This document shows, piece after piece, positions 10,433 to 58,846 of a stretch of 64,000 nucleotides of DNA. Below the pieces are notes generated by a model, which was not told the DNA's origin, did no database searches, and saw only the letters and a program-made list of their open reading frames with translations. The stretch's first letter is position 1, and every line of letters starts with the position of its first letter. Made by a program: the position numbers and the translations under genes. Origin of the DNA: Candidatus Woesearchaeota archaeon (GTDB taxonomy: Archaea > Nanobdellota > Nanobdellia > SCGC-AAA011-G17 > UBA489); NCBI GenBank assembly GCA_018655015.1, contig JABIKK010000013.1, positions 44,071 through 108,070 on the forward strand, written 5' to 3'.

Positions 10433-10434
10433 GG

Positions 10435-35627: not shown

Positions 35628-36413
35628 ATGAAACTATACATAAAAGACCGCATAACTGGCACTATAAATTACAGCAAACATATAAAAAATTGGTATTCTT
35701 TAATTAAAACTAAACTATACAACAAAGAAAGACGATTACTTCTAAAATTTAGAAACGGATTAAAACTTAACATAATGAACAAAAAAGTAGACAGTGATAT
35801 AACAATTATAAAAGAAATTTATGTTTGCAATAACTATAACAGAAATAACTTCAATATCGAAGATGGAGACGTAGTTTTAGACTTGGGAGCAAACATAGGA
35901 ATTTATTCAACTTATGCAACAACCTTTGGAAAAGGGATTACAGTTTATGCTTATGAAGCTTCACCAAAAAACTTTGAATATCTAAAAGGAAATATAGAAC
36001 TAAACAACCTGCAAGATATAGTCAAACCCTATAACGAAGCAGTAACAAGTAAAAACGGAAAAATAAAATTTTTCCTTCACGACAGAGGAAGTGGTGGAAA
36101 TTCAATGTTCGATGAACTAACAACCTCAGAAAGAGAGGGATCCATTGAAGTAAAGTCCATCAATTTACCATCTATTTTGAAAGAAAATAAAATCAAAGAA
36201 GTAGGTTTTCTAAAGATGGATATTGAGGGTGCGGAATATGAAACACTCCTAAACTGTCCCTCCGATGTCATAAAGCGTGTTAAAAAGATTGCAATTGAAT
36301 GCCATAATGTAAAAGGATATAAAAAAGAAGACCTCATTAAATATTTAATCAAAAATGGATTCATGGTCTGGAAACCTTCCAAGGGCATGGTCTACGGAAA
36401 GAGAGTAGATTAA
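35628..36413 (+). CDS. FkbM-family methyltransferase
   Basis: 'VLDLGANIGIYS' and 'FLKMDIEGAEYE' FkbM signatures. Confidence 0.75.
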   Translation: MKLYIKDRITGTINYSKHIKNWYSLIKTKLYNKERRLLLKFRNGLKLNIMNKKVDSDITIIKEIYVCNNYNRNNFNIEDGDVVLDLGANIGIYSTYATTFGKGITVYAYEASPKNFEYLKGNIELNNLQDIVKPYNEAVTSKNGKIKFFLHDRGSGGNSMFDELTTSEREGSIEVKSINLPSILKENKIKEVGFLKMDIEGAEYETLLNCPSDVIKRVKKIAIECHNVKGYKKEDLIKYLIKNGFMVWKPSKGMVYGKRVD

Positions 36414-36431
36414 ACCATTAACGAGGTTATT

Positions 36432-37928
36432 ATGAAAAAAGAAAGTATTGGCAATCTTATTTTAAGAAATTCTCTGTGGAATAGTTTTTCTGCATTAATT
36501 GCCAAACTTGGAGGATTTATCTTTACAATAGTAATAGCTAGACTTCTTCTACCAGAACTTTTTGGACTTTATTCCTTAGTTTTGTCAATTGCGTTAATTG
36601 CGATGGTCCTAACAGATGCAGGAACAAGTTCCGGAATATTAATGTTCATTCCTAAAGCTTTGAAAGAAAAAAACAATCGAGTAAATGCTAGATCAAATTT
36701 CCGTTATCTATTGAAGGTAAAAGGATTAGTAATGTCCATAGTTATTTTATTGCTTTTAATTCTAGCAAGACCATTAGCATACAACTTCTTCGAAAAACCA
36801 GCAATATTTTTACCAATCCTACTTGCTACATTGTATATAATAACTACCTCAATGAAGGACATGTTCTACAATCTCTTCGTTTCTCTAAAAGAACTAAGCA
36901 GAGTACCAGTAATCACTACAATCTATCACTTATCAAAAATAATATTGTCCATTGTAGCAGTTATCTTACTCCCCGTTTCATACAAAATATCTGGAATTTT
37001 TGTAGCATTTAGTTTAGCAGCCCTAATCGCATTAGTATACATTTTAGTTTTGTTAAGAAAAAATAAAGACTTAATTTTAGGAAAAATTAAAGAAATCAAA
37101 AAACCACGCATAAACAAATACTTACTACATCTAAGTTTTGCAAGTCTAACACTTGTTATTTTTGGCTCAATGGACACATTAATGTTGAGCAAGTTTGTTG
37201 AACCTGAATTTCTCGGTTATTACCGTGCAGCTTTAAGTTTAGCTTTAGCAATTCCAGGATTTTTCGCAATATGGGACGTTATACTCCCAATATTCACGCA
37301 AGTCAATCAAAAAAGTCTAGAAAAAACATCTAAAGACATTCTAAGGTTTGTTATGATGCTGTCCATTCCAGCTGCAGCAGGCTTAATTGTTCTTGCAAGA
37401 CAGTCAACATTACTAATTTACGGCAAGGAATACATTTTAGCAACAGCGCCATTAATAATCCTATCAACCTTAGTCATAACCTCTCCTTTAATCGCATTCC
37501 ACTCAAGCGTATTAAAGGCAAAGGAAAACACAAAATTCCTTGCAAAATTCATATTAATTTCTGCACTCCTAAACATTGCATTAAACTACATACTGATTTC
37601 ATATCTTATTAAACTCGGACCAATTCATGCACTAATGGGTGCAGCAATAGCAACTGTATTTAGCAGAGTCTTCCTCTTAGCTGCATTAGCATCAAAAAAC
37701 TATACTGCACACAATATACTGCCTTTGAAATTACCAATAATAAAGTTTTTCATCTCTAGTTCAGTAATGGCAATTGCAATCATTCTATTCAATAAACTCA
37801 TAAATCTAAATCCGATCTTAGGACTTATAGAAATTCCAGTAGGGATTCTAATCTACTTTGGAGTTTTACTAATAATTAAAGGCGTGACAGTAGATGAAAT
37901 AAAAGCATTAAGACCTTCTAGAAGGTAG
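36432..37928 (+). CDS. Oligosaccharide/polysaccharide flippase (Wzx/MOP family)
   Basis: ~12-14 TM helices and the typical length; located in the glycosylation cluster. Confidence 0.7.
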   Translation: MKKESIGNLILRNSLWNSFSALIAKLGGFIFTIVIARLLLPELFGLYSLVLSIALIAMVLTDAGTSSGILMFIPKALKEKNNRVNARSNFRYLLKVKGLVMSIVILLLLILARPLAYNFFEKPAIFLPILLATLYIITTSMKDMFYNLFVSLKELSRVPVITTIYHLSKIILSIVAVILLPVSYKISGIFVAFSLAALIALVYILVLLRKNKDLILGKIKEIKKPRINKYLLHLSFASLTLVIFGSMDTLMLSKFVEPEFLGYYRAALSLALAIPGFFAIWDVILPIFTQVNQKSLEKTSKDILRFVMMLSIPAAAGLIVLARQSTLLIYGKEYILATAPLIILSTLVITSPLIAFHSSVLKAKENTKFLAKFILISALLNIALNYILISYLIKLGPIHALMGAAIATVFSRVFLLAALASKNYTAHNILPLKLPIIKFFISSSVMAIAIILFNKLINLNPILGLIEIPVGILIYFGVLLIIKGVTVDEIKALRPSRR

Positions 37929-38867: not shown

Positions 38868-39874
38868 TTTTTAATTAAATACCTCATAATACCATAGAAT
38901 TCAAATAGATTCCTTAAATACATTACTGGAACCATCAAAAAGGAATAAAACACGCTTTTGCTAGCCCTTAAAGCATAAAAATATGTTAAAGCATAAGCTG
39001 CTAGAATAAAAAACGCCCCAAGGTAAATGTTAAAAAATAACAATCCAAATGGACCAAACATAAATGCAAGCTTAGCGGCAGAATATTTTATTTCGTTTTT
39101 TTGTCTTTCTTTGTCTTTCATGGAAGCAATGCCTTTCCCAGACCACAAACATTGGCGATAAACACCCTTGAGATCAGCAGGTTGTTCAGAGTAAAACAAT
39201 ATTTTAGAATTCCAAACTCCCTTGTATCCTTTAGAAAAGAATCTTTTACCAAGATCCTCATCCTCATAATAAAATATTTTTTCATCAAATCCTTTCAAAT
39301 CTAAAAAAGCCTTCCTACTTATAACAAACGGATTATAACCAATATAATTTTTAATAATTTGACCATCTTTTATTTCTCTAACTTCTTTAGAAGGTCTTCC
39401 CAACAGAGCAACAAGCCTAGATAACAAATTTGAAAATGTATTTTCTTTCATATGCCCAACAGAATCAATTCTTTTATCTTCAAAATTCTTAGCAATACTT
39501 TGTAAAAAACCATCACTTATCCCTGTGTCAGCATCTAAAAAAACTAAAATTTCTCCAGTTGCCTTTTTAGCACCCCTGTTTCTAGCAGCAGCAGCAGAAG
39601 TTCCAGTTGGATGATCAACCAATTTAATATTTTTATTTTTCTTCATATAGCTCTTAACAACTTCAACAGTCCCATCTATAGACCCGTCATTAGAAATAAT
39701 AAATTCTAAATTTGAATAACCGCTACTCAAAACACTATCCAGAGCCTTATGGATATCTTCCTCTTCATTATGTGCAGGCGTTACAACTGAAATTTTTGGA
39801 TTCTTTGACATAACAATCACCTCAAACCCTAGATCTAAATCCCCATTCGTAATCATGTTCAGAATCGTAATCAC
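38864..39874 (-). CDS. Family-2 glycosyltransferase, tandem paralog
   Basis: Shares the identical 30-aa stretch 'HPTGTSAAAARNRGAKKATGEILVFLDADT' and ~90 % nt identity over ~120 nt with 37908-38867. Confidence 0.8.
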   Translation of the reverse strand: MITILNMITNGDLDLGFEVIVMSKNPKISVVTPAHNEEEDIHKALDSVLSSGYSNLEFIISNDGSIDGTVEVVKSYMKKNKNIKLVDHPTGTSAAAARNRGAKKATGEILVFLDADTGISDGFLQSIAKNFEDKRIDSVGHMKENTFSNLLSRLVALLGRPSKEVREIKDGQIIKNYIGYNPFVISRKAFLDLKGFDEKIFYYEDEDLGKRFFSKGYKGVWNSKILFYSEQPADLKGVYRQCLWSGKGIASMKDKERQKNEIKYSAAKLAFMFGPFGLLFFNIYLGAFFILAAYALTYFYALRASKSVFYSFLMVPVMYLRNLFEFYGIMRYLIKK

Positions 39875-40349
39875 TAAATTTAATCAACTTTAGATTATGC
39901 TTCTTCAAAACTTTGAGCGTATTAGAATCATAACACCACCAACCTGCTACAACCTCACTAGGTACTACATTCAACTCACTCTTCATCCAATTAACTGCTT
40001 CATTAATCATCTTTTCTTGTTCAGCCAAGGTCATATTCATTAACATACTAAGGTGAATGTGCAATTCAAGTTGTTGCCCATGATTGATCATCCATTTGTA
40101 TCTTTCTTTCAAAATCTTTGAAACTTTCTCTTTAGACAACTTAACATTAAAAGAAGACTTAAAATAATCATAATTCGCAGGGGTCATAACATACCATTTG
40201 TGAATTTTTCCAGAATTTGATTTATTCTTAACTTCTTCCCAGATAGAATCAATCACTACAGCTTCAGTATGAATAGTCAATGGCTTTAACTTACTACGCA
40301 AAAGAGAGCTCCAATACTTCAATAATCTAAAAACGTTAAAAGATGCCAT
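39822..40349 (-). CDS. Hypothetical protein
   Basis: 175-aa ORF in the glycosylation cluster overlapping the upstream GT2 by 53 nt. No clear motif. Confidence 0.35.
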   Translation of the reverse strand: MASFNVFRLLKYWSSLLRSKLKPLTIHTEAVVIDSIWEEVKNKSNSGKIHKWYVMTPANYDYFKSSFNVKLSKEKVSKILKERYKWMINHGQQLELHIHLSMLMNMTLAEQEKMINEAVNWMKSELNVVPSEVVAGWWCYDSNTLKVLKKHNLKLIKFSDYDSEHDYEWGFRSRV

Positions 40350-40350
40350 T

Positions 40351-41379
40351 TCAAGAGTTGTCCTCCTTAATCTTGTTAACTAACAGTGAAAACTTCTCCT
40401 TAAAAAGATTTATACAATTCTTTTCATTAAAAAATGTAGCCGCCTCTGAAAATTTATTTCCTAATCTCTTCTTAGCAACAACAGGCTTATCAAAATAATC
40501 CATAATAACTTTCATTGCCCTATTCCTCTCATTCAAAGAAAAGACATACTCCTTAGAAATATCACCTACAACATTCTTAACTCCTGTTGTGTCGGATGTA
40601 AAACAGGGTATTCCTGAAGCCATAGATTCTAAAGCTGCAACTGGAAATGCATCGCCCCTTCCAAAATGACAATACAATGCAGAATGTTTCATATAAGTCT
40701 TCAAACCCTCAATGTCTTGGTTACCAACAAACTCTACATTGGGCCAGTCTTTCTTAAAATTGTCCCACTTACCACCAACAATAAACAATTTACTTTTTTT
40801 AAACTTTTCCTTAACTTTCAAAAACACTTCAACTAAAAAGTCCAAGCCCTTACAATAATAATCTTCTCCACCACCTACAAACAGAATATTATTTTTATCT
40901 AATCCTGATTTGAATTTAAAGAAATCATTCCGATTAATATACGAATAGGCTACTTCAACTGGAACATTTGGTGCAACCTTTCTAAAGAGTTCTTCTTGTA
41001 ATGGTCCCAAACAAATTGCGCCATCAATCTTTTTAATTAGTTTAAGAATAACCTTTCTCTTCCAAGGCTTAAATTTCTCAACCTCCAAAGAATCAAAATT
41101 GAATTTTTTATTATCTACCAATTGAAACAATCTTGGATCAGCAAATAAATTAATTATCTTAGAAGACTTATTAATAAATCCAAATTTCCTAGCTAAAACT
41201 GCATAATTAAACAAACCCTCTGTAAAATAAATATCATATCCTTTAGGTATTTTTCTTAAACTCATCAATCCATGGACCATTCCATCTGGGAGATAATAAA
41301 AATCAGCACCAATAGCATTAGCAAAGCTAGAATGAACTGGATGCGGCGGATTCCCACAAATAAATAATACTTTACTCAT
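40351..41379 (-). CDS. GT-B fold glycosyltransferase (GT4-like)
   Basis: C-terminal GT-B Rossmann domain (FVGNQDIEGLKTYM...AALESMASGIPCFTSD). Confidence 0.6.
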   Translation of the reverse strand: MSKVLFICGNPPHPVHSSFANAIGADFYYLPDGMVHGLMSLRKIPKGYDIYFTEGLFNYAVLARKFGFINKSSKIINLFADPRLFQLVDNKKFNFDSLEVEKFKPWKRKVILKLIKKIDGAICLGPLQEELFRKVAPNVPVEVAYSYINRNDFFKFKSGLDKNNILFVGGGEDYYCKGLDFLVEVFLKVKEKFKKSKLFIVGGKWDNFKKDWPNVEFVGNQDIEGLKTYMKHSALYCHFGRGDAFPVAALESMASGIPCFTSDTTGVKNVVGDISKEYVFSLNERNRAMKVIMDYFDKPVVAKKRLGNKFSEAATFFNEKNCINLFKEKFSLLVNKIKEDNS

Positions 41380-41410
41380 AGAACTTCTTGAAAAAAGAAG
41401 CTTAATAAAC

Positions 41411-42256
41411 TTAACTCTGAGAAGGAGAACTGGATCCTAAAAAGTACTCTAAGCCTTCCATAGCACCCTCAAAAAATGGTTTTTCTGCAACATAGCCCCT
41501 CTCCCCTCTAGAAGAAACGGCCCGCTTTAATCTTTTGTCGGCATTTCCAGGGCAAATCCAAATTCCATCTGGAACACCCTTCATCATTTCTCCATCGGAA
41601 TGGTATGAATCTCCCAATATAATTACATCTTTAGTAGCAACACCCAACTCTCCAAGAATATGTATTAATCCATCCTTTTTACTTACGCCAGGGATGATGT
41701 CTAAAGCCATGTCACAGGTTTTAGCAACAAGACGGCCATCATCAAGATCTGACCTTAACTCGGGAGACATGAACTTAACCACTTCAGAATAAAGACTTCT
41801 AGCAAATGCTTCTCCATCAGGACTATTAAACTCATAAGTTAAAATATGTAAATTATCTCTCATCCTAGTCAATTCAGCCCCATCAAATTTTGCACCTAGG
41901 AATTCATCATGCTGCCCAGCGTGATGAATAAATTCTTCCAACCTATTTTTTGCACCAGTAAGATTTCTAAAATGGTCATCTCCTTCAGCAATATGATATT
42001 CTCTACCAGTTTTAGGATCAACAATCATTGTTCCATGCTCACAAACAGAAAGTGCATCCATGTAGCCAAGTAATTCCCTCGTAATTTCTAAAGATCTTCC
42101 AGTAACAGCAACGCAAGGTACACCCTTTTTGGTCATAAAACTTTTCCACCTATCTAGATTTTCTTTTTCGCCATTCAAAATAGCCCTAGTAGTATCTTTA
42201 GAAAATATTTCGCCAGTACTCAATACACCATCCAAATCAAATACAGCTAGTTTCAT
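41411..42256 (-). CDS. HAD-superfamily phosphatase (candidate nonulosonic-acid-9-phosphate phosphatase)
   Basis: Motif I 'FDLDGVL' and C-terminal 'ILGDSYHSD'. Adjacent to NeuB/NeuA. GC-richer than the cluster average. Confidence 0.6.
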   Translation of the reverse strand: MKLAVFDLDGVLSTGEIFSKDTTRAILNGEKENLDRWKSFMTKKGVPCVAVTGRSLEITRELLGYMDALSVCEHGTMIVDPKTGREYHIAEGDDHFRNLTGAKNRLEEFIHHAGQHDEFLGAKFDGAELTRMRDNLHILTYEFNSPDGEAFARSLYSEVVKFMSPELRSDLDDGRLVAKTCDMALDIIPGVSKKDGLIHILGELGVATKDVIILGDSYHSDGEMMKGVPDGIWICPGNADKRLKRAVSSRGERGYVAEKPFFEGAMEGLEYFLGSSSPSQS

Positions 42257-42280
42257 TTTAACCTCTAGAACTGAAATAAA

Positions 42281-43327
42281 TTAAAGGTCGTCTACCCTTC
42301 TTAGATCATCAATAATGGGTATTTCAGAATCATGAACTCTTTTCCCATAATTTCCAAGCATAATCGGAATCCTCTTTGCAACTCTAGCAATATCTCCTAA
42401 AGCTTTAGGTTCAATACTAGCTGCGTGATCCCATCCAAACATGGATCTTCCAAGAGTAATGTGTTTTTCAATAACACAAGCACCTGTAGCCATAGCAACA
42501 ATTGCAGGCCATATTCCTGGAGCATGACAACTGAATCCAATTGGACAGTCAAAATGTTTTCTTAATGTGTGGATTACATTAATATCTAATTCACTATCCT
42601 TTGAAGGATAAGTTGCTGTACAATGTAACAAAACAGTATTCTCGGAACCAAGAATCTTCATAGCTTCAACAACTTTTTCCATATTAGTCATTCCTATAGA
42701 AAATATAATCGGTTTACCTGTAGATTTTATTTTTTTCAATAAGTTTCTATCAGTCAAACTTGCAGAAGCAATTTTATAACAAGGAACATCGAATTTTTCA
42801 AGGAAGTCAACGCTTGCTTCGTCCCAAGGGGATGCAAACCACATAATTCCTTTTTCCTTACAATACCTATCTATCTCTTGGTATTCTTCTTCACCAAACT
42901 CTAATTGTTCTCTCTCTTCTCTATTTGTTGTGCCCCAAGGTGTTTTTCTTGGACCATCCATAAATTCTTTAGTATAAATAACATCAAGTGTTCTTTTCTG
43001 GAATTTAACTGCATCACAACCTTTCTCAACTGCAAGATCTATCATTGTTTTAGCAGTTTCAATTTCACCATTGTGATTAATTCCAATTTCAGCAATAACA
43101 AAAATAGGTTGATCGTGACCAATCATTTTATTTCCAATCCTAACTGGTTTTGGTCCTCTAGTCTCTAAATTTCTAAACTCATAATCGCTCCACGCTTGAG
43201 AAATAGCTTGTGGAACACTATTAACGGCCCCAGAACCTTCATTAACATAACTTGCTACTCTATCAGCAAATTCTCGAGGTACGGTTATTGATGTGCTTCC
43301 TTCTTTTGGCATACGGTCCTGCATCAT
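42281..43327 (-). CDS. neuB: N-acetylneuraminate (nonulosonic acid) synthase NeuB-family, with ~48-aa N-terminal extension and no SAF domain
   Basis: 'PIFVIAEIGINHNGEIETAKTMIDLAVEKGCDAVKFQKR' is the canonical NeuB/PseI/LegI TIM-barrel N-terminus. The protein ends ~25 aa after the barrel. Confidence 0.8.
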   Translation of the reverse strand: MMQDRMPKEGSTSITVPREFADRVASYVNEGSGAVNSVPQAISQAWSDYEFRNLETRGPKPVRIGNKMIGHDQPIFVIAEIGINHNGEIETAKTMIDLAVEKGCDAVKFQKRTLDVIYTKEFMDGPRKTPWGTTNREEREQLEFGEEEYQEIDRYCKEKGIMWFASPWDEASVDFLEKFDVPCYKIASASLTDRNLLKKIKSTGKPIIFSIGMTNMEKVVEAMKILGSENTVLLHCTATYPSKDSELDINVIHTLRKHFDCPIGFSCHAPGIWPAIVAMATGACVIEKHITLGRSMFGWDHAASIEPKALGDIARVAKRIPIMLGNYGKRVHDSEIPIIDDLRRVDDL

Positions 43328-43399
43328 CAGTAGTTTATAAAGATTTCTATGTTGTAGTCAATTAATTTAAAAAGGACCGTTCATGGACCGTATAAATTA

Positions 43400-44107: not shown

Positions 44108-44202
44108 TTTAAAAATCCACCGTTTAACAAGCTATAAAACCAATTAATAAGGTTTTCCCCCTCCAAGAAGGATTTAAATAGTCTTCAGAAAAGCATAGAA
44201 AT

Positions 44203-46203: not shown

Positions 46204-46204
46204 T

Positions 46205-49386: not shown

Positions 49387-49424
49387 AACTAAAAAACCTC
49401 TAAATAGCTTATAAATTTATCTTA

Positions 49425-50459: not shown

Positions 50460-51571
50460 TTCAAAGCCTCATTATAGACTTCTATTAATTGCTTGTTTCT
50501 AACTGGAATAGAAAGTGCCCCTTTTCTAACTTTGTCCAAACCGGCCTTAGCTAGCTTATTTCTAAATGCTTCATTTTTAACAAGTCTCTCCATTGCAAAA
50601 TGCATATCGACTATAAACTTTTCATTTGCATCTCCAACAAGCTTAGAAACTGGATATTCTTGAATAAAATTCTCTTTAAGACTATAACCAGGAATATCTA
50701 CAATCAGACCAGTTTTGCCATCTTCCACAAGTTCTGGAACGGCAAACAAATTCGTCCCAATTATTGGTAATCCTGCAACCATTGCATCCATCAAACCAAA
50801 ACCAAAACTATCACATAAAGTTGGATACAAAAAAATATCGCACTTAGCATGAACATTCTTTATCAAATCTTCACGAGAGATAATATTATTGGAATAATTA
50901 GTGTATTTAACATTCTTAGATGAATATTTCTTTTGTATCTCTTTTGGAACATCAGCCCGCATCCAAAGTTCAACATTATTAAACTTCTTCTCCAACCTAG
51001 AAAAAGCTTCAAGAACTTGAATCCCACCTTTCTGTTCAAACAAACTCAAAACACATAGAATTCTTATTTTCTCATGTTTCTCTGTTTTAGTAGGACTTAT
51101 GTGTGCAGAAGGATACAGCACTTTTAACTTATGTTTGAACTTCCTACAATCAAAATGTTTCAAAAATCCTTGTAACGTAGCATCACAATGGCATAATATC
51201 GCCTTACAATATTTAGATCCAAGTTTCCACTCAATAAATTTTTTAATTAATTTATTTTCGACAGCTTTAGAATGAAGTCCCATGAAAGAATAAAAATGTT
51301 CAACATCCATAACCCATGGTTTTCTATTTAAAGGAATTATACCTCTGGAAGTATGGATCAAGTCATAATCTCCTGGCTTAACCATTATAACTCTAGGAAG
51401 ATTAATTGCTTGAGAGAGAACATTAGCTAATTCTTTTAGTTTCTTATGTTTGTAATAAGTTCCTTTTTTAGTTTGTCCAGAAACACCCAAATACTCAACA
51501 CCTCTTGGTGGATAATTCACAATTTCTTGATATATTTGGTGCGCTCCAAAGATTTGTTTAATTTTTATCAT
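50456..51571 (-). CDS. Family-4 (GT1) glycosyltransferase
   Basis: 'LCDSFGFGLMDAMVAGLPIIGTN...ELVEDGKTG' EX7E motif. Confidence 0.8.
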   Translation of the reverse strand: MIKIKQIFGAHQIYQEIVNYPPRGVEYLGVSGQTKKGTYYKHKKLKELANVLSQAINLPRVIMVKPGDYDLIHTSRGIIPLNRKPWVMDVEHFYSFMGLHSKAVENKLIKKFIEWKLGSKYCKAILCHCDATLQGFLKHFDCRKFKHKLKVLYPSAHISPTKTEKHEKIRILCVLSLFEQKGGIQVLEAFSRLEKKFNNVELWMRADVPKEIQKKYSSKNVKYTNYSNNIISREDLIKNVHAKCDIFLYPTLCDSFGFGLMDAMVAGLPIIGTNLFAVPELVEDGKTGLIVDIPGYSLKENFIQEYPVSKLVGDANEKFIVDMHFAMERLVKNEAFRNKLAKAGLDKVRKGALSIPVRNKQLIEVYNEALK

Positions 51572-51628
51572 TTCAAGACTCCCACGCTAAAATGTCCAAA
51601 CTCGGCAGTTTAAATGCTTTTTTAAGAG

Positions 51629-52477
51629 CTATTTTCTCTCCAAAAGAAGGTATTTCAAGGCCCTACCCTTAAAGATGTACTTCAAGCTATCCAAAGGTCT
51701 AAGATCGGTTTTAACAAAAGTGAATAATTTAATCAAACCTGTAAGTTTGAGAAAACCATGGAAAGGATACAATCTCAAAGGTAAGTCTTCTATGAGATAT
51801 TTAACAACAAAACCTTCTTTTTCGAAATAAGTCATTAAATCTGTAGATTTATCTCTTCCAAGAATGTCTGTGTGAAATTCTAATGAAATCTTCTTAACTT
51901 TAGATGGAATTTTTTTAAACAAAACTTCATACTCATGACCTTCTAAATCCATCCTAATAAAATTAGTTTTATATTTATCTACAAAGAATTTTAGAGTTTC
52001 ACTTTTAACAGGAATAGTATTCTTATTCTTAACATCAACAATCTTAGAGATGTTTAATTGTTCATTTTTTTCTAAATAGACTTTTCCTTTTTTTCCAACA
52101 GCCATATTCACAAATTCAACCTTTTTAGAAATTCCATACTCCTTAACATTCTTCTTCAAGATTGGAAGCGCGCAATCTAAAGGTTCTATTGAAAAAATCT
52201 TTTTAGCAGCACTAGATAAAATTGTAAAAAAACCAAGATTGGCACCAATATCCAACATAACATCAGAATTTTTAACAAATCCACAATGGAACTTATAGTT
52301 CAATGGCTCCCTAAAACCAAAAACCCTCAAATGTTTAGACAACCCAGAATCATCACTATGTAAATAAAATTTAAATTCCTTATTAACATCAATCTTCTTC
52401 AAATTAACAATAACAGGATTTCTTTTATTATTTCTTAGCTTACAAATAATCCAATACGGCCACCATGTAGGGTTCAT
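51629..52477 (-). CDS. FkbM-family methyltransferase
   Basis: 'MLDIGANLGFFT' and 'FIRMDLEGHEYEVL'. Confidence 0.75.
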   Translation of the reverse strand: MNPTWWPYWIICKLRNNKRNPVIVNLKKIDVNKEFKFYLHSDDSGLSKHLRVFGFREPLNYKFHCGFVKNSDVMLDIGANLGFFTILSSAAKKIFSIEPLDCALPILKKNVKEYGISKKVEFVNMAVGKKGKVYLEKNEQLNISKIVDVKNKNTIPVKSETLKFFVDKYKTNFIRMDLEGHEYEVLFKKIPSKVKKISLEFHTDILGRDKSTDLMTYFEKEGFVVKYLIEDLPLRLYPFHGFLKLTGLIKLFTFVKTDLRPLDSLKYIFKGRALKYLLLERK

Positions 52478-52478
52478 C

Positions 52479-53123
52479 TCAAAAAATCCTCCTAACTAAT
52501 CTAATTCCATGGACCACTAACCAATTATAAATTCCTTTGAGAGTCACCATTTTAATCATCAAACGGCTCCTTAATAACTTCAAACCATTAAAATCTCCAT
52601 TATACAACAAGGAAGAAACTTCTCCCCCAGTATCGCCCAATCGCGTTTTAAGCTCACTAAGAACTACTTTTTTGTCAGCAGTTTTAACTAATTTCTTTAT
52701 TTTCACTAAATGCTTTTCAGAGAAATGTCTTTTATCAATTACACAATGCAAAACAAGGTGAATTAATTCATCTTCCTCCGAAAGCGTATAAAAATAAGAT
52801 CTTTTTTTCCTCCGACTCAATAAATCTCTAGCAGAAGCATAAGGAAAACCTTGGTAAGGCATAACTTTAACCCTTAAATCAAGATAATATTCTCCCTTAA
52901 ATGTTAAGTAATAACCAAAGTCGGCTCTTTTCTTAAAACCTAGCTCTTTCAATAAATTTCTAACTTTACATTTATTCTCAACTAAAATATCTATATCGTT
53001 ACCATCATCAAAAGTAGAATAGCCCCTAAGAACTACATAGTTTATCTTTTCTTTAGAAAACATTTCGAAAACATTTTTTAGGACAGTTTTCATTTTACAC
53101 CTTCCCCAATATTTCGTTAACAA
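52479..53123 (-). CDS. Pol-beta-superfamily nucleotidyltransferase-fold protein
   Basis: 'GNDIDILVE' G[SG]x9-13DhD-type NTase motif. Confidence 0.4.
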   Translation of the reverse strand: MLTKYWGRCKMKTVLKNVFEMFSKEKINYVVLRGYSTFDDGNDIDILVENKCKVRNLLKELGFKKRADFGYYLTFKGEYYLDLRVKVMPYQGFPYASARDLLSRRKKRSYFYTLSEEDELIHLVLHCVIDKRHFSEKHLVKIKKLVKTADKKVVLSELKTRLGDTGGEVSSLLYNGDFNGLKLLRSRLMIKMVTLKGIYNWLVVHGIRLVRRIF

Positions 53124-53697
53124 CCGTTTTTAGACTTTTCTCATTATCAACAAATTCTAAATCAACATAATGGCCTAACTTTTTAGCTTGTTTATAAAAA
53201 TTATTTATGTTATCTGCATTAGCCTCTTGTTTTCTTTTAAGTATAACTTTACTAGAAGCATGAATTAAAAAACATTTTTGTGGCTTGGGTGTAATAAGTT
53301 TCAGAAGTTTAAAATTAGTATCGTTGGACAATATCAAACCATCATAAAAGTATCTATCATACAATAAGTAATCCGCACGTATAAACTTATTTTTAATAAA
53401 TCTAGTCCAGAACTCAAGATACTGGATTAATAACCAAGGAAGCTTCCTAGTTCTATAATTATTTCTATCAAATTCCTTTACTTCTTTATCTTTAGATTTC
53501 TTCGGCCTATGCTTAAACGATGAATACCAACTGCTAAAAGTCCTCATTAAAGGAAAGGCATAATCCCTTCCAAGGCCCATATAACGGACTTCACAAGTTT
53601 TGCCCCTCTTCTTAAGACCCTTACAAACTTCCCTTATCACAGTAGTTTTACCCGACCCATCAATCCCAATAAAAGCAATTGTTTTCATTTTAACCAC
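53095..53697 (-). CDS. P-loop kinase (thymidylate/deoxynucleoside-kinase-like fold)
   Basis: 'IAFIGIDGSGKTT' Walker A in the arrangement typical of dNMP kinases. Overlaps the NTase gene by 29 nt. Confidence 0.5.
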   Translation of the reverse strand: MVKMKTIAFIGIDGSGKTTVIREVCKGLKKRGKTCEVRYMGLGRDYAFPLMRTFSSWYSSFKHRPKKSKDKEVKEFDRNNYRTRKLPWLLIQYLEFWTRFIKNKFIRADYLLYDRYFYDGLILSNDTNFKLLKLITPKPQKCFLIHASSKVILKRKQEANADNINNFYKQAKKLGHYVDLEFVDNEKSLKTVVNEILGKV

Positions 53698-54788
53698 TTA
53701 ACAATCTCCTTGCTTACTCCACTTCCACCATAAGGATTCTTAAATTTCTTAACTTTAATACCTTTAGTGATTATTTCATCAATTAATGTTTTACTCTTTT
53801 CTACATCCAGTTTAGTTAAAAAATTCAAACCAGTTGTAAGGCCTTCCTGTCTTTCAGTAAATTCCCTCAACAATACGCAAGGTTTCTTGAAAACCAAGCT
53901 TTCTTCCTGAATAGAACCTCCATCCACAACAAGTATTTCACAGTGTTTCATCTGATAAGAAAAGTTAATGTAATCTAATGGATCAATTAGTTTAACAAAC
54001 TTATTCTTAACTAGTCGATCATAAAGTCCAAAATCAATAAGCTGTTTTTTTGTATTATCATGTAATGTAAAATAAGAGGGTATTTTCAAAGAACAAAGAA
54101 TTTCAACAATCTTAGACAACCTATCTTTATTCTTAATGTTTTCATGCCTATGTACAGATATTAACGCGAATTTTCCTTGGGATAACGGTTTAATCTTCGC
54201 TTTAACAGCAAGCTTACATGCAATATCAATAGAATCCACAACAGTATTACCTACGGTTATGATTTTTCCACCATGCCGCTCTTTTTCTAAATTTTTTCTA
54301 GATCTCTCAGAAACAGCCAATAAAATATCTGAAAACCTATCTGCAATTTTCCTTGAAATTTCTTCAGGAAATGGTTCCATCAATTTACCACTTCTCAGAC
54401 CAGCCTCTAAATGAACGTTCTTATATTTCTTAAAAGGATTCAATAACCTGGAAGAAGCAATAGCAATTGCAGCAGTAGTCATTGTATCCCCATGATAGAG
54501 TACATAATCCAGATTCTTAGTTCTTAACAACAACTTCCAAAGCTTAAAAATCACCCATCCATTCCAAAAAATAGCCCTTGGGACTTTAGTATAAAATTTA
54601 GTGCTTGCTTTAGGTTCTTTAGTTAAAATAACATCTGGCTTTTTGACAGAAAATTTATCACATAAGTCACCAAGACTATGCTGTCCAGTATGTACAAAAG
54701 TATAAGGAATCTTTTTCCTATCCAATTCAAGCATCACAGGAAAAGTTTTTATCAACTCTGCCCGAGTACCAATAACTATCAAAATCAT
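53685..54788 (-). CDS. neuC: UDP-N-acetylglucosamine 2-epimerase (WecB/NeuC family)
   Basis: 'IVIGTRAELIKTFPV...HTGQH' N-terminus and 'VGNTVVDS', 'VLLREFTERQEG' motifs of UDP-GlcNAc 2-epimerases. Confidence 0.8.
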   Translation of the reverse strand: MILIVIGTRAELIKTFPVMLELDRKKIPYTFVHTGQHSLGDLCDKFSVKKPDVILTKEPKASTKFYTKVPRAIFWNGWVIFKLWKLLLRTKNLDYVLYHGDTMTTAAIAIASSRLLNPFKKYKNVHLEAGLRSGKLMEPFPEEISRKIADRFSDILLAVSERSRKNLEKERHGGKIITVGNTVVDSIDIACKLAVKAKIKPLSQGKFALISVHRHENIKNKDRLSKIVEILCSLKIPSYFTLHDNTKKQLIDFGLYDRLVKNKFVKLIDPLDYINFSYQMKHCEILVVDGGSIQEESLVFKKPCVLLREFTERQEGLTTGLNFLTKLDVEKSKTLIDEIITKGIKVKKFKNPYGGSGVSKEIVKWLK

Positions 54789-54828
54789 AGTTCTGACTAC
54801 CTTAAAAAGAGTTTAAATAGATTCCTGA

Positions 54829-57417
54829 TTATTCTTTCGCTAAATATTCTTCTTTAAGAACTATGTCTTCAGGATAGCTAACTTCCCATATCTTGAGGGG
54901 CCCTATTAGTCTTCCACCATATAATGCCAAAGGCCATGCATTTTCATCTGGATAGGCTAGCTTAAAGTAATCACTTTCTTTATCCATTAAAAATAAATTT
55001 GAAAACAAGGTTCTCCTAACCCTTTCGCTAATATACATCGCAGCTCCAAAAGGATCCTGTTGATTATCATTTACTATTTCTGGAATAATTCTCAAGCAAC
55101 CATTAAGACCTTCTTCACCTGGCCAATTGATTTCTTCACCATTAAAATAAATGCAATTAATAGGTACATCGAATTGCTTTCCATTATAAATAACTGCTGC
55201 AGATGGTTGCGAAAATGAAACTTGGTCTCCATCCCTTGCCATAGGCAATAAGAATGCACCGATACCTGCAGACCTTCCAGGTAAAACAGTATCTTGCCAT
55301 ATAAGATCCTCATCTAAAACAGACCCACCAGTATAAACTAACAATACATCATCCCTCCTCTCAACAGATTGTGATCCATCAAGAACAAATGTAGATATCC
55401 AACTATAACGATCATAATTTTCATCTGAGCCAATACTGGAATAAGCTGAGTACTTCCCAATTTCATCACTAATCATCAAAAGATGCGTAGTATTATGTGC
55501 ATATAAAAATTCTAAGGCCTCTAATTCACTCTGTCCAGTCAAAACATGTCGCCCCATTAAATAATCCCAATGACCCACAGGATGCCCTCCATCTGTTATG
55601 GTTGCTCTTTCACCACCTGTTTGAACCCAATAACCATAATCCCACCAGTGGGCAAATGTAGAATCCTTTGGCGTATCCTCTCTAACCCACTGCATACCGT
55701 ATTGCCATTGTTGACTGTAGCTAGGGCCCGAATGTGATGCTGCACCATAACTTGCCTTTGAAAAAGTTAACAAAGATCCATTAACAGGCAATATAATTAA
55801 AGATAATATAATTGCTACAAACACAATTTTATAAAAAATATTCTTAACTTTCAAAAAATGTTCATACAAACTATAAATAAAATAACCAGTCATTAGAGAA
55901 ATAATTGGACTAAATACAAACAAAAGCCTTATTGCACTTCTTGCAGCTACAATCATCACAATAAACCAAACAAAAACAAAAATGTATTTCTTTTCAATGT
56001 CTGATATCCTTTTAACAAGATCCAAATCTTTGTAATGCGCACGAATGTATAACACTGCAATAATTAATGCAAACACTATCAATGAACCAATATAAAATAC
56101 ACTAGAAATAAATGTGTCTCCATTAAAAATTGAACTAGCAGAATATCTACTAAATATAAATGCAACTAAAAACAAAGCATACATTGTAGTTAAGGCCTTT
56201 CTACCTTTCTTAACAGGCTCCATCATTTTAAAGAATAACATAATTGAACCAATGAAGAAAGCAAAGAAAAATAGTTTCCCCATTTCAGAGAACCATTCTA
56301 TAACATAGGGGACTCTTTGTTCAGCAACAGTTAATGCAACTCTACCGCCACTTAACGCACGTAAAAGACCATCTACAACTTGACTAAACTGACTAAACAG
56401 AAAGGAAGGACCATATAAGATTGTAGAAGTAAGCACGACTAAAATTATTGCAAGAACTAATTTCAATATAAAATCTGGCAAATGCCTAGGTACAAATCTT
56501 TTTATTTTATCCATTAAACTAAACTTTCCAGAAAGATATTCAACTATAAATAATACAAATACAAACACTGCAACTGCTGAGGTTATAGACCTCAAGAATC
56601 CAGTTAAAGCATACTTACTAGTTGAAACCAATACCAATAATGAAACAACTAACCAAGAAGAATAAGCTAAATAATCATTTCTCTTAAGCTTATGTAAGAA
56701 CCACTCGATTAAAGCAAACAGTCCGAATATAAGGAATATAAATTTAAATCCTCCCCAAGAAAAGGCCATCAATGCAGTTGAGATTCCGGTTAAACCACCA
56801 AACAACAAAGCTCTCTGCATAGTCTTAGCATCCCATGAAAAAGTAAACAAGTAGAATGTCAAAAACATAAAGAAGATACCTAATGCTTCTTTGTCAGAAA
56901 AACCTGCAGTTGTTCGATATAAAAATGAGGGTATGAATGAAAGGAATGCAGTCGAAATCATTGCAACATATTTGTTAAATAATTTCTTAACCAAAAAGAA
57001 AAATACAATCATGGACAATACAAAAAAGATTACAGGATACAAAACATTGGCAAGTTCATATGTTGCAGAACCACTAAAAATTGACATTATTTTATACAAC
57101 ATTGATGTAACAACGGGGATAATTTTAACACCTACATCAACAGGATTGCCAAATGGTGCAGCCCTCATAAAATCATGTGCCATGAAAGAACCAGTTTCAA
57201 CAAATTCTCTTCCATACCTCATAAACAGAAAAGGATCCAATGCCATAGGAATATACTTGCCCGTTGTAACATCTTTCAAAAACCCAAGATTTAAAGTCCT
57301 CATACGAGCTGCAAACCAAATTATCGCAGCAGTAATAACATAAACAATAGCAGTAGAATTCTTCTTCAAAAAATTCAAAACAGGAAAACCTCTCTCTTTT
57401 AGACCACTAAGCTTCAT
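54829..57417 (-). CDS. aglB: Dolichyl-phosphooligosaccharide-protein glycotransferase AglB (STT3 family oligosaccharyltransferase)
   Basis: 'WWDYGYW' catalytic signature, 13-TM N-terminal domain, large C-terminal soluble domain. Confidence 0.9.
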   Translation of the reverse strand: MKLSGLKERGFPVLNFLKKNSTAIVYVITAAIIWFAARMRTLNLGFLKDVTTGKYIPMALDPFLFMRYGREFVETGSFMAHDFMRAAPFGNPVDVGVKIIPVVTSMLYKIMSIFSGSATYELANVLYPVIFFVLSMIVFFFLVKKLFNKYVAMISTAFLSFIPSFLYRTTAGFSDKEALGIFFMFLTFYLFTFSWDAKTMQRALLFGGLTGISTALMAFSWGGFKFIFLIFGLFALIEWFLHKLKRNDYLAYSSWLVVSLLVLVSTSKYALTGFLRSITSAVAVFVFVLFIVEYLSGKFSLMDKIKRFVPRHLPDFILKLVLAIILVVLTSTILYGPSFLFSQFSQVVDGLLRALSGGRVALTVAEQRVPYVIEWFSEMGKLFFFAFFIGSIMLFFKMMEPVKKGRKALTTMYALFLVAFIFSRYSASSIFNGDTFISSVFYIGSLIVFALIIAVLYIRAHYKDLDLVKRISDIEKKYIFVFVWFIVMIVAARSAIRLLFVFSPIISLMTGYFIYSLYEHFLKVKNIFYKIVFVAIILSLIILPVNGSLLTFSKASYGAASHSGPSYSQQWQYGMQWVREDTPKDSTFAHWWDYGYWVQTGGERATITDGGHPVGHWDYLMGRHVLTGQSELEALEFLYAHNTTHLLMISDEIGKYSAYSSIGSDENYDRYSWISTFVLDGSQSVERRDDVLLVYTGGSVLDEDLIWQDTVLPGRSAGIGAFLLPMARDGDQVSFSQPSAAVIYNGKQFDVPINCIYFNGEEINWPGEEGLNGCLRIIPEIVNDNQQDPFGAAMYISERVRRTLFSNLFLMDKESDYFKLAYPDENAWPLALYGGRLIGPLKIWEVSYPEDIVLKEEYLAKE

Positions 57418-57454
57418 GATATGTCAACCAAAATGCAATTTAAATAACTAACTG

Positions 57455-57865
57455 TTGCCAAATACCTTTAAAAACAAGGCAAGAAACCAGAAAAACATGA
57501 AAGACAAAACAATAGAAGGGTATTTCAAAGATATTACCATATCTGACGATCTAGAGAATGTAAAAGCTGAATATTCCACAGAAGAGTATTCCAACGATCC
57601 TAAGGGATATTTTCTAATAAAAGCCAATAAAGAAGAAGGAATAATCGAAGTAGGATACTGCTCTCCAGATAACATTCTTAAAAAAAGAATAACTGGAAAG
57701 AACCCAATTGAAATATTCTATACTTTAATCAGATTGGGCTTAATATCTAAACTTGAACATGCGGCAGACACAGGGTCAGAATTACAGAAGGCATACATCG
57801 CATTAAAAAACAATTTAGAATACACTCAAGACAAAGATCTCAATTTAAATAATCCAGATCAATAA
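57455..57865 (+). CDS. Hypothetical protein
   Basis: 136-aa ORF between aglB and the aglH-like gene. True start may be M15 (57497). Confidence 0.35.
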   Translation: MPNTFKNKARNQKNMKDKTIEGYFKDITISDDLENVKAEYSTEEYSNDPKGYFLIKANKEEGIIEVGYCSPDNILKKRITGKNPIEIFYTLIRLGLISKLEHAADTGSELQKAYIALKNNLEYTQDKDLNLNNPDQ

Positions 57866-58846
57866 AGAAAATACAACTTGCATTATAACTAAATAAGATA
57901 CGATTTGTTTCTCAGTATAGTTTCCAGTTTTAGTAAGTATGTGAGCTATTGAATAAACTTTTTCATGTTTAGACAAGATTTTACCATTAATCCAAATACC
58001 AAAAGAATCAGCAGAAAACTTACTTCTCCATTTCAAAAAGAACTCAACAAAGAATGGAATTGAAATAATCAACGCTGGAAATTCTAGTCCACCAACAATT
58101 GCAATTGTCGCCAAAGTTCCACCTAAAAAATAAGTTAAGGAATCACCAGGAAGTATTTTCGCTGGAATTTTATTAAAGAAAAAGAATATTAAAACTGCTA
58201 ATAATGCAACAAATGCAATTAATGAAGCAACAAAGCTTTGATGCACATAAGCATATGTTCCCAATGACAATAAATAAACAACACCCATACCTGCTTCAAG
58301 TCCGTTAAAGCCTGCAAGCATGTTTACCATATTGGCAGCACCAACAAAACCAACTGGAATCAATATCAAAGGATAAATCCAACCAACGGAGATATCTCCA
58401 AAGTAAGGAATAAAAAAGCTAACTTTATTACTCAACACAATCATCAAAGGCAAAGCCCCTAATAAAGTCAAAAGTGGTTTTTGCCACTGCCCAAGACCAA
58501 GTGATTTCTCACCAGAACCATGTATAAACGCATCATCAAAAAAGCCAATTAATGTAACCCAAACAATTGCAATTACTGAGGCCAATATTACAGATAGATC
58601 ATAACCTTCTAAAACACCAAATAATCCGCCATCATAAAATAAACTAACGCCTAGATACAAAAATAAACCAACTAAAAAACCAACTAAAACGGCCAGGCCA
58701 CCTGACAACGGAACGAGAGGTTTATCTTTTTTATTTTGATCCTTAACAATTAATCCAACTTTTCTTAAGAAAGATATCAACCAAACTAAAGAGTGATAAG
58801 TCACAAAGATAGTTACAATGCCTACCAATAAAAATAATAAATCCAT
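57845..58846 (-). CDS. UDP-HexNAc:dolichyl-phosphate HexNAc-1-phosphate transferase (MraY/WecA/GPT family; AglH-like)
   Basis: 'FFDDAFIHGSG' and 'NMVNMLAGFNGLEAG' motifs of polyprenyl-phosphate N-acetylhexosamine-1-P transferases; ~10 TM. Confidence 0.8.
   Translation of the reverse strand: MDLLFLLVGIVTIFVTYHSLVWLISFLRKVGLIVKDQNKKDKPLVPLSGGLAVLVGFLVGLFLYLGVSLFYDGGLFGVLEGYDLSVILASVIAIVWVTLIGFFDDAFIHGSGEKSLGLGQWQKPLLTLLGALPLMIVLSNKVSFFIPYFGDISVGWIYPLILIPVGFVGAANMVNMLAGFNGLEAGMGVVYLLSLGTYAYVHQSFVASLIAFVALLAVLIFFFFNKIPAKILPGDSLTYFLGGTLATIAIVGGLEFPALIISIPFFVEFFLKWRSKFSADSFGIWINGKILSKHEKVYSIAHILTKTGNYTEKQIVSYLVIMQVVFSLLIWII

Follow-up and report, generated by a model that had tools for sequence, protein, structure and literature searches.

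In Bacteroides thetaiotaomicron and Prymnesium parvum, a ketodeoxynononic acid 9-phosphate (Kdn-9-P) synthase (BT1714), a phosphatase (BT1713), and a cytidine monophosphate (CMP)-Kdn synthetase have been documented (PMC6200933); in animals, the corresponding steps belong to NANS, NANP, and CMAS. Among archaea, legionaminic acid (Leg) occurs in the N-glycan of Halorubrum sp. PV6 (Kandiba 2012 and Zaretsky 2018, both as cited in PMC11407970). Transfer is illustrated by Tannerella forsythia, where Tanf_01245 and TFUB4_00887, the orthologs of BFO_1060, are genetically proven transferases for pseudaminic acid (Pse) or Leg that use N-acetylmannosaminuronic acid as acceptor, adding the acid to a proximal residue of the N-acetylmannosamine (ManNAc) type (PMC5420450). 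Within the DPANN archaea, the cultivated Candidatus Nanohalococcus occultus SVXNc is reported to carry and express N-acetylneuraminate-synthase genes together with a glycosyltransferase in one operon (PMC10266531). Here, we describe a related but differently organized locus from a Candidatus Woesearchaeota archaeon (assembly GCA_018655015.1, contig JABIKK010000013.1), in which genes for an apparent sialic acid-like pathway lie in one cluster with the oligosaccharyltransferase gene aglB. The whole stretch analyzed, 64,000 nucleotides from positions 44,071 to 108,070 of the contig, is referred to below as the window.

The cluster comprises 24 open reading frames (ORFs) within 35628-58846 of the window, mostly on the minus strand and with short gaps or overlaps between neighbors, whose domain content was established by Pfam and NCBIfam profile scans. 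These borders had been drawn in an earlier reading made from the letters of the window alone (hereafter the sequence-only reading) and proved right, as SecD/SecF genes (32955-35626) flank the cluster upstream and SpoIIM-like and RimK-like genes flank it downstream. Judged from sequence, it is a fairly ordinary and well-conserved grouping of aglB beside some 20 sugar-building genes of known families. We consider it probable, rather than secure, that this is an N-glycan assembly (agl) cluster with an embedded acidic-sugar module that follows a 9-phosphate route like that of animals and Bacteroides. What the sequences show directly is which domains are present, that the catalytic motifs are intact, a conserved gene order, where the synthase falls in its tree, and the recurrent adjacency of a phosphatase; from these we infer the substrate, the product, the role of the GT-B glycosyltransferase (GT), and attachment to protein. 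The embedded module would work in four steps: the synthase condenses phosphoenolpyruvate (PEP) with a sugar 6-phosphate, the adjacent phosphatase removes the 9-phosphate, the cytidylyltransferase makes the CMP-sugar, and the adjacent GT-B transfers the activated sugar to the glycan. The four genes are as follows.

41411..42256, minus strand: HAD-IIB phosphatase, proposed ulosonate-9-phosphate phosphatase (TIGR01484, 44.6 bits, cut-off 41.8; PF05116; PF08282)
42281..43327, minus strand: SAF-less NeuB-family synthase, NANS-related, with an N-terminal extension of ~60 residues (PF03102, 245.6 bits)
43400..44107, minus strand: NeuA/PseF-like cytidylyltransferase, predicted CMP-ulosonate synthetase (PF02348, 83.1 bits; PseF, 129.7 bits, cut-off 205.7)
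44758..46203, minus strand: TagF-like GT-B of 481 residues, candidate CMP-ulosonate transferase (PF04464, 45.1 bits; PF02350, 36.7 bits; NF046086, 58.1 bits)

Profile typing of the synthase upheld the family named in the sequence-only reading but neither of the equivalogs. The PF03102 score and the motifs of the TIM-barrel domain place it in the NeuB superfamily, whereas it reaches only 248.9 bits on the NeuB model TIGR03569 (cut-off 399.65), the match ending at profile position 274 of 329, and 208.2 bits on the PseI model TIGR03586 (cut-off 340.25). A SAF domain (PF08666) had no match in the Pfam scan. Its kinship lies instead with vertebrate NANS, the N-acetylneuraminic acid (Neu5Ac)-9-phosphate synthase, to which it is 36% identical over 281 residues (191 bits) with only 5 gap positions, and with which it has in common the motifs KFQK, PRxxPWGxT..LEF, GxSxH, and HITL..G.D. 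In a thin tree, built by neighbor-joining only (500 bootstraps) and without LegI, PseI, or the bacterial Kdn-9-P synthase BT1714, the SAF-less family and a DPANN paralog form a clade at 99.8% that joins NANS at 98%; Neisseria meningitidis NeuB, Bacillus subtilis SpsE, Leptospira 6ncs, and a SAF-containing DPANN NeuB found among Leg/Pse-type genes all fall outside. Only database sequences entered this tree, a human NANS query having matched named mammalian NANS clusters at 96-97% identity. By manual count, the window synthase has Leu where human NANS has M42, a residue reported to govern Kdn-9-P activity; no weight is placed on this here. By phylogenetic grouping and partner phosphatase, the protein is best placed with the NANS-type 9-phosphate synthases, as judged among references without a bacterial Kdn-9-P synthase.

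The family alignment shows no variation at H267, H288, E79, K107, or Q109, nor in the KFQ and AEIGINH motifs. Because the metal-binding histidines and both motifs are retained, the synthase should be catalytically active; in its AlphaFold2 (AF2) model (predicted local distance difference test, pLDDT, 84), strands alternate with helices, which is consistent with a barrel. The nearest homologs come from metagenomic bins labeled 'archaeon', Pacearchaeota, Woesearchaeota, and Nanoarchaeota, and an identical protein is recorded on a metagenome contig of the Joint Genome Institute (JGI). Homologs of ~290 residues that lack the extension, 50-58% identical, are very widespread in bacteria, with hosts including Melainabacteria, Acidobacteriota, Chloroflexota, candidate phyla radiation (CPR) groups, and a Streptomyces. 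This SAF-less subfamily of bacteria and DPANN is large and uncharacterized, and its members are currently annotated as 'N-acetylneuraminate synthase'; context and phylogeny make a 9-phosphate synthase the more likely function.

The extension itself, residues 1-60 (43148-43327, minus strand), is conserved in DPANN members with the pattern MPKEGxxSITVPxxLxxRISxFV...SQAWQxYE and has no Pfam match. The AF2 model has two helices in this region, preceded by a short extended stretch, with a ribbon-helix-helix-like look. The extension may stand in for the absent SAF domain in dimerization or have a regulatory role.

The phosphatase is one of five cluster ORFs that were absent from the sequence-only reading, the others being the NTP_transf_5 protein, the P-loop kinase-like protein, a 175-residue hypothetical protein, and a DUF4346 protein. 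Its HAD-IIB motifs are intact (DLDG, TGRS, K, and GDSYHSD, of the DxDG and GDxxxD type). The gene lies directly downstream of NeuB in the window and in the related loci L001, L084, and L088; L090, L089, and L003 have a KdsC/BT1713-type HAD of ~190 residues beside NeuB/NeuA instead. A phosphatase therefore adjoins the synthase in all five loci syntenic with the window (see below), but it is of two unrelated types. Because two unrelated phosphatases have been recruited to the same slot, dephosphorylation appears to be integral to the pathway. The same pairing recurs in bacteria: in the 66 loci where ORF calling recovered the short synthase, a small KdsC/BT1713-like HAD is the commonest neighbor immediately downstream (33/66) and CTP_transf_3 the commonest upstream (31/66), the latter sometimes fused to the HAD. 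When compared with the Kdn-9-P phosphatase BT1713, the small bacterial HAD reaches 96 bits, and with a KdsC it reaches 101 bits. The window HAD, at 281 residues, has no significant BLAST match to such C0 HADs (E 0.3 or worse) and lies outside the BT1713/KdsC family, yet it could function as a Kdn-9-P phosphatase does.

The cytidylyltransferase scores 65-77 bits against CMP-Neu5Ac synthetases, including 76 bits against the mouse enzyme (1qwj), and no more than 33.5 bits against KdsB. With its PF02348 score, it ranks among the CMP-nonulosonate synthetases, although it misses the PseF equivalog cut-off. The NeuB-like gene is its direct neighbor in each of the five syntenic loci, and likewise in five more distant archaeal loci examined. 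The pair had been named NeuB and NeuA in the sequence-only reading, with the caveat that they might turn out to be KdsA and KdsB; this candidate was rejected, as the synthase belongs to PF03102 and not to the DAHP/KDO8P-synthase family and the cytidylyltransferase is nearer NeuA than KdsB.

Five independent metagenomic loci (L001/L002, L084 from GCA_018645665.1, L088, L089, and L090), with protein identities of 40-78% to the window, have in common the core order GT4-FemAB-methyltransferase (MT)-CE4-GT4-GT-B-(MT)-NeuA-NeuB-phosphatase-GT4-GT2-(GT2)-flippase. Conservation of this order in five loci excludes a chance arrangement. AglB and the WecB-type epimerase flank the core in every locus that reaches far enough (L001, L084, and L090). 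One of the five, L089 (GCA_043810945.1), is labeled as a Patescibacteria group bacterium while carrying the archaeal-type block (FemAB, CE4, GT4, GT-B, NeuA, HAD, NeuB, GT4, GT2, and flippase) at 36-76% identity to the window proteins, plus two DUF386/YhcH fragments. The YhcH family is linked to sialic acid metabolism. The L089 contig is either mis-binned or the outcome of inter-domain transfer.

The surrounding agl genes supply the framework within which the acidic sugar would be used. AglB with its WWDYGYW motif, the PF00953 transferase, and the Wzx flippase were recovered by Pfam and NCBIfam where the sequence-only reading had placed them; the two GT2 enzymes were also found, as were three GT4 enzymes plus the further 481-residue GT-B, where three to four GT4 had been counted. 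In the proposed scheme, the PF00953 phosphosugar transferase would prime dolichyl phosphate; the GT2, GT4, and GT-B enzymes would extend the lipid-linked glycan, with the WecB-type epimerase supplying uridine diphosphate (UDP)-ManNAc for one residue; the CE4, FemAB-like, and methyltransferase enzymes would modify it; and after translocation by the Wzx-type flippase, AglB would transfer it to Asn sequons of surface proteins. The framework genes are listed below.

36432..37928, plus strand: Wzx/MOP-type flippase (PF01943, 86.7 bits; PF13440, 63.4 bits), at the same cluster end in L001, L084, and L088
37908..38867, minus strand: GT2 (PF00535, 116.6 bits), with orthologs of 53-54% in L001, L084, L088, and L089 and of 42% in L090
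38864..39874, minus strand: GT2 (PF00535, 109.8 bits), with orthologs of 36-57%
40351..41379, minus strand: GT4-type, with a C-terminal GT1 domain (PF00534, 66.4 bits) and orthologs of 44-46% in four syntenic loci
46205..47329, minus strand: GT4, Agl16-like (PF00534, 134.4 bits; PF13439, 84.1 bits; NF041010 Agl16, 145.9 bits, cut-off 575), with orthologs of 53-71% in 5/5 syntenic loci
50456..51571, minus strand: GT4 (PF00534, 62.6 bits), with orthologs of 34-75%
53685..54788, minus strand: predicted non-hydrolyzing UDP-N-acetylglucosamine (UDP-GlcNAc) 2-epimerase of the WecB type (Epimerase_2; TIGR00236, 209.0 bits)
54829..57417, minus strand: AglB oligosaccharyltransferase, STT3 family, 862 residues (PF02516, 61.9 bits; PF21436; TIGR04154, 113 bits)
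57845..58846, minus strand: polyprenyl/dolichyl-phosphate HexNAc-1-P transferase family, AglH/Alg7-like (PF00953, 97.2 bits; MraY matches weak)

The aglB gene is an uninterrupted frame of 862 residues with LDPF, SDKE, TVAE (TIXE-type), and AHWWDYGYWVQ, and its DPF, SDKE, and WWDYGY regions align with the corresponding catalytic regions of human STT3A/B. Domain scores identify it as AglB (PF02516 cut-off 24.5; PF21436, 23.8 bits, cut-off 23), although it stays under the subfamily cut-off of 450 on TIGR04154. Some 60 residues past WWDYG lies 'SDEIGKYSAYSSI' with D-x3-K spacing, to which neither a canonical DxxK nor an MxxI can be assigned. The possibility of a pseudogene is ruled out by the intact frame, the presence of all catalytic motifs, and orthologs of up to 63% identity. 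This bears out the sequence-only reading: an intact aglB stands in physical linkage with a set of genes for lipid-linked glycan assembly and with the NeuB/NeuA-family pair, and relatives keep this linkage. The initiating transferase was assigned to the polyprenyl-P HexNAc-1-P transferase family by its Glycos_transf_4 domain (PF00953 cut-off 27) together with DD and NxxNxxxGxxGL motifs, here FFDDAF and NMVNMLAGFNGLEAG, the latter presumably the eukaryote/archaeal form found in Alg7/AglH-type enzymes. The flippase is a polytopic protein of ~500 residues spanned by a Polysacc_synt domain, as expected of the Wzx/MOP family.

Candidate acceptors are encoded in the same window. Two ORFs, 20268-21674 (minus strand) and 62577-63860 (plus strand), hold 14 N-X-S/T sequons each against the ~5 expected from composition; both have hydrophobic N-termini and no Pfam family and are predicted to be secreted or membrane-anchored. 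Their features are consistent with N-glycosylated surface or S-layer-like proteins, and the sequon-rich surface proteins that had been noticed in the window are thus borne out in these two.

As in the Kdn pathway of Bacteroides and its Prymnesium counterpart, three steps are encoded side by side: a PEP-condensing NeuB-family synthase, predicted here to use a sugar 6-phosphate; a phosphatase of the HAD type; and a cytidylyltransferase with a CTP_transf_3 domain. Bacterial and some DPANN members of the synthase family also have a BT1713/KdsC-like HAD next door. The window differs in that its phosphatase is an unrelated HAD-IIB of ~280 residues rather than the C0-type BT1713, in having the module inside an archaeal aglB cluster, and in the ~60-residue N-terminal extension of its synthase. 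The resemblance to the animal pathway lies in the synthase (its identity, diagnostic motifs, and bootstrap grouping given above), the implied dephosphorylation, and the cytidylyltransferase match. However, the window synthase is without the C-terminal AFP/SAF domain, the phosphatase is of another HAD subclass, and the epimerase is of the WecB type, with no GNE-type hydrolyzing epimerase/kinase in the window. With Halorubrum sp. PV6, the cluster would have in common an archaeal AglB-dependent surface glycosylation ending in a sialic acid-like sugar. The Leg route of that organism employs a dehydratase, an aminotransferase, an acetyltransferase, a hydrolyzing epimerase, and a SAF-containing LegI, whereas none of these is found in the window.

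The GT-B is a reasonable but unproven candidate for the CMP-ulosonate transferase, as judged from domain and context. TagF-like enzymes of the Glyphos_transf family use cytidine-nucleotide donors. The family is rare, with 23 detectable homologs, and co-occurs with NeuB/NeuA in all syntenic loci; remote homologs lie beside NeuB/NeuA in L085, L087, and L003. Like the T. forsythia transferases, it is a GT-B/TagB-like protein encoded beside CMP-nonulosonate genes, and its C-terminal ~110 residues match the BFO_1060 family (NF046086). The ManNAc-type acceptor of T. forsythia also has a parallel, as the cluster includes a WecB-type epimerase predicted to form UDP-ManNAc. The differences are that the N-terminal domain is unrelated, that MRED stands in place of HP, and that the T. 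forsythia system is O-linked. An AF2 model (pLDDT 89.7) shows a GT-B fold.

The product is probably a Kdn-like acid. Mannose-6-phosphate (Man-6-P), leading to Kdn-9-P, is the most economical guess for the substrate, given that neither a ManNAc kinase nor NanE occurs in the window; conversion of ManNAc-6-P to Neu5Ac-9-P is the alternative. A more specific proposal, which we put forward tentatively as one that may well fail, is that the AglB N-glycans of this DPANN clade are capped with a Kdn/Neu-type, possibly O-methylated, ulosonic acid made by a eukaryote-like 9-phosphate route with three undescribed enzyme variants: a SAF-less, N-extended NANS relative, a HAD-IIB phosphatase displacing the KdsC type, and an HP-less TagF-like transferase. 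If true, this would be the first archaeal phosphate-dependent sialic acid pathway, and animal sialic acid synthase would have its nearest prokaryotic kin in the SAF-less bacterial/DPANN family.

Several observations weigh against the 9-phosphate route and its N-linked product. The window holds no gene that would supply Man-6-P or ManNAc-6-P, and the phosphatase is a divergent HAD-IIB with weak Cof-type solved relatives, homologous to neither BT1713 nor NANP. On NF046086, the GT-B reaches 58.1 bits against a cut-off of 200, over its C-terminal part only, which leaves it outside the family, and its close subfamily has MR(E/K)D where sialyl- and TagF-type transferases have the HP motif. Foldseek against the Protein Data Bank (PDB) returns generic GT-B structures (2-epimerases first, then TagF and MshA) at template modeling (TM) scores of ~0.5-0.65 that do not discriminate function, and PDB sequence searches of the GT-B and of the HAD gave marginal matches only. 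The tree that groups the synthase with NANS is thin, as noted above, and linkage to aglB is circumstantial as evidence for an N-linked product. Finally, in DPANN loci further removed from the window, this synthase has GmhA-like, GFO/IDH/MocA, SDR, and AP_endonuc_2 genes as partners. Because these neighbors differ and a homolog from bacteria carries a fused GmhA-like domain, the substrate of the SAF-less family may not be uniform.

This last point leads to the alternative that survives best, namely that the synthase condenses PEP with arabinose-5-phosphate or heptose-7-phosphate to a C8 or C10 ulosonic acid. The fused homolog is a short bacterial family member (P0118) joined to a GmhA-like SIS domain of the sedoheptulose-7-P isomerase type; in L085, GmhA-, HldE-, and GmhB-like genes and GT9 heptosyltransferases lie beside the synthase (6477-9032), and the L087 operon includes a SIS gene (15197-15781). 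The small HADs, moreover, are as close to KdsC as to BT1713, and there are mass-spectrometric hints of longer-chain ulosonic acids (PMC8157484). We nevertheless regard this alternative as unlikely for the window, since neither it nor its five syntenic relatives hold SIS, heptose, or GFO/IDH/MocA genes, the nearest characterized relatives of the synthase are C9 9-phosphate synthases, and the cytidylyltransferase is NeuA-like rather than KdsB-like. Apart from the window, some SAF-less family members might condense PEP with heptose phosphate to a C10 ulosonic acid.

The sequence-only reading had described a complete NeuABC pathway. In the bacterial form of such a pathway, ManNAc set free by a hydrolyzing epimerase is converted directly to Neu5Ac by NeuB, and NeuA then activates the product. 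Epimerase_2, NeuB-family, and CTP_transf_3 genes do all occur in the cluster, and NeuB_NnaA is the top NCBIfam match of the synthase. The NeuB- and NeuA-family members stand, but the supposed NeuC, and with it completeness, does not: on the NeuC_NnaA model TIGR03568, the epimerase scores 44.5 bits against a cut-off of 235.9, whereas on the wecB model TIGR00236 it falls 1 bit short of the cut-off of 210.15. Its best solved relative is 4neq, the non-hydrolyzing Methanocaldococcus jannaschii enzyme (172.5 bits), and all top matches are non-hydrolyzing. The gene adjoins aglB, 10 kb from NeuB, and keeps this position in L001, L084, and L090. Given its WecB-type scores, its kinship to 4neq, and its conserved place beside aglB, the epimerase is most likely a UDP-ManNAc supplier of the non-hydrolyzing WecB type and, by sequence, not NeuC. 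Resolution of NeuC as WecB was among the outcomes that the sequence-only reading had itself named as refuting it, and the case shows that gene names alone mis-state the pathway. With the synthase 150 bits under the NeuB cut-off and without SAF, and with a conserved adjacent phosphatase that had gone unnoticed and would be left without a role, we consider the direct bacterial route improbable. In N. meningitidis NeuB, the SAF domain supplies the Arg that binds the N-acetyl group.

No better placed is the view that the cluster builds a non-protein glycoconjugate (a surface polysaccharide, glycolipid, or lipoglycan) and that aglB is merely adjacent, to which we likewise give little credence. Wzx, GT2/GT4, CE4, FemAB-like, and TagF-like proteins are also typical of bacterial polysaccharide and teichoic acid loci, many NCBIfam matches are to exopolysaccharide (EPS) or PEP-CTERM models, and L089 is labeled as a Patescibacteria bin. 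However, no Wzy polymerase or chain-length regulator was detected in the Pfam scans, and the window, L001, L084, and L090 all have this block bordered by aglB together with WecB. A dolichyl-P-type initiating transferase also lies beside aglB, Agl16- and AglG-like matches are present, and sequon-rich secreted proteins are encoded nearby.

Least credible, and in our view very improbable, is synthesis of a Pse- or Leg-type acid with the dehydratase, aminotransferase, and acetyltransferase genes elsewhere in the genome: PseI is the second NCBIfam match of the synthase (208 bits) and PseF the best of the cytidylyltransferase, Pse and Leg are the nonulosonic acids so far documented in archaeal and many bacterial glycans (as cited in PMC11407970), and the GT-B-related T. 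forsythia transferases use Pse or Leg (PMC5420450), but no DegT aminotransferase, 4,6-dehydratase (Polysacc_synt_2), or hydrolyzing epimerase is encoded in the 64 kb (all larger ORFs scanned), all three are likewise absent from the five syntenic loci, Pse and Leg pathways have no step for the phosphatase, and the Leg/Pse-type genes of L087 go with a separate SAF-containing NeuB outside the SAF-less/NANS clade. That Woesearchaeota contig carries two separate ulosonic acid modules, at 2332-8218 and 10001-11774, one with a SAF-containing NeuB, Epimerase_2, formyltransferase, DegT, and dehydratase (Leg/Pse type) and the other with a SAF-less NeuB and CTP_transf_3.

The remaining cluster genes comprise glycan modifiers and accessory ORFs.

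35628..36413, plus strand: FkbM-family methyltransferase, a window-specific accessory (PF05050, 71.9 bits; TIGR01444, 114 bits; no ortholog in the syntenic loci)
39822..40349, minus strand: conserved 175-residue hypothetical protein (no Pfam/NCBIfam family), with orthologs of 62% (L084) and 53% (L089) at the same position
44203..44757, plus strand: small Methyltransf_11-like methyltransferase between GT-B and NeuA (PF08241, 28.9 bits), with orthologs of 78% at the same position in L001 and L088
47307..48110, minus strand: CE4 deacetylase/deformylase, ArnD-like (PF01522, 52.6 bits; NF011923 ArnD, 75.5 bits, residues 4-264, cut-off 382), in 5/5 syntenic loci
48170..48769, plus strand: Methyltransf_11-like methyltransferase (PF08241, 32.9 bits), with orthologs of 58-78% in 5/5 syntenic loci
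48766..49386, minus strand: class I S-adenosylmethionine (SAM) methyltransferase, MTc (PF05148, 46.4 bits; PF08241, 42.2 bits), with orthologs of 50-52% in L084, L089, and L090
49425..50459, minus strand: FemAB-family/GNAT-fold acyl(aminoacyl)transferase (PF02388, 49.6 bits; PF13480, 42.9 bits; TIGR03019, 117.8 bits, cut-off 260), in 5/5 syntenic loci
51629..52477, minus strand: FkbM methyltransferase, window-specific (PF05050, 42.6 bits)
52479..53123, minus strand: NTP_transf_5 protein, window-specific (PF14907, 43.9 bits)
53095..53697, minus strand: P-loop kinase-like protein, window-specific (Walker-A match to dTMP-kinase models)
57455..57865, plus strand: DUF4346 pterin-binding-like protein (PF14251, 58.3 bits), on the opposite strand between aglB and the PF00953 gene

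Domain scans agree with the two FkbM and three Methyltransf_11-type methyltransferases, the CE4 enzyme, and the FemAB-like protein of the sequence-only reading. The methyltransferases at 44203 and 48170 are strongly conserved and MTc (48766) is kept in 3/5 loci, while the two FkbM genes have no counterpart in those loci. Along its whole length the CE4 enzyme resembles ArnD, and it is conserved together with the FemAB-like protein. ArnD is a deformylase acting on a lipid-linked sugar. This suggests that the CE4 and FemAB-like proteins may remove the N-acetyl group of a lipid-linked amino sugar and then re-N-acylate it, a role no less likely than acylation of the nonulosonic acid. The DUF4346 protein is probably unconnected with glycosylation.

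Neither the FkbM genes nor the NTP_transf_5 or P-loop gene has an ortholog in any syntenic locus. Those three gene types make up an insert between GT4 and WecB (51629-53697), which has the lowest GC of the window (0.309-0.316) and looks like a strain-variable accessory cassette. The cluster as a whole has a GC of 0.31-0.35, no different from its flanks, which rules out, on composition, a horizontally transferred island; the term 'island' used in the sequence-only reading holds in the sense of a gene cluster but not of compositionally foreign DNA.

All components fall into known superfamilies, and Bacteroides, algae, and animals provide precedents for the pathway logic. Less ordinary are the probable use of a phosphate route by an archaeon, the SAF-less, N-extended synthase, the displaced phosphatase type, and the tight, conserved linkage to aglB. 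A literature search for nonulosonic acid plus DPANN found no report, and a broader search found one, on a nanohaloarchaeon. In that organism, SVXNc, synthesis is described as proceeding from UDP-GlcNAc, and the genes are placed in a putative horizontally transferred island (PMC10266531); that paper reports no aglB link and no phosphate route. The rarity that had been claimed for such sugars in archaea was somewhat overstated, as the genome and transcriptome of this DPANN nanohaloarchaeon are already reported to include a sialic acid gene set (PMC10266531).

Most DPANN archaea live as episymbionts, and attachment to the host is believed to depend on their surface chemistry; to our knowledge, almost nothing is known about their glycans. 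The cluster predicts, in a form that can be tested, that N-glycans carry an acidic Kdn/Neu-type sugar whose synthesis passes through a phosphorylated intermediate. As the module consists of four small soluble enzymes, it is open to expression and assay without cultivation of the organism.

Elsewhere in the window, housekeeping genes surround two free-standing ORFs that resemble LAGLIDADG_3 homing endonucleases, at 16399-17109 (minus strand) and 26364-27029 (plus strand). Other genes encode a PIN-domain/T2SSE-ATPase fusion (23518-25320, plus strand), an ELP3-like radical-SAM/GNAT protein (1806-3719, plus strand), and a 999-residue NHL-repeat protein with a hydrophobic N-terminus (4193-7192, minus strand). 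At 274-1946 (minus strand), three tandem paralogous ORFs of ~185 residues, with no Pfam family and no sequon, begin with a common N-terminus, MELKINIEKKHMYILSVLI, that is probably a signal or anchor.

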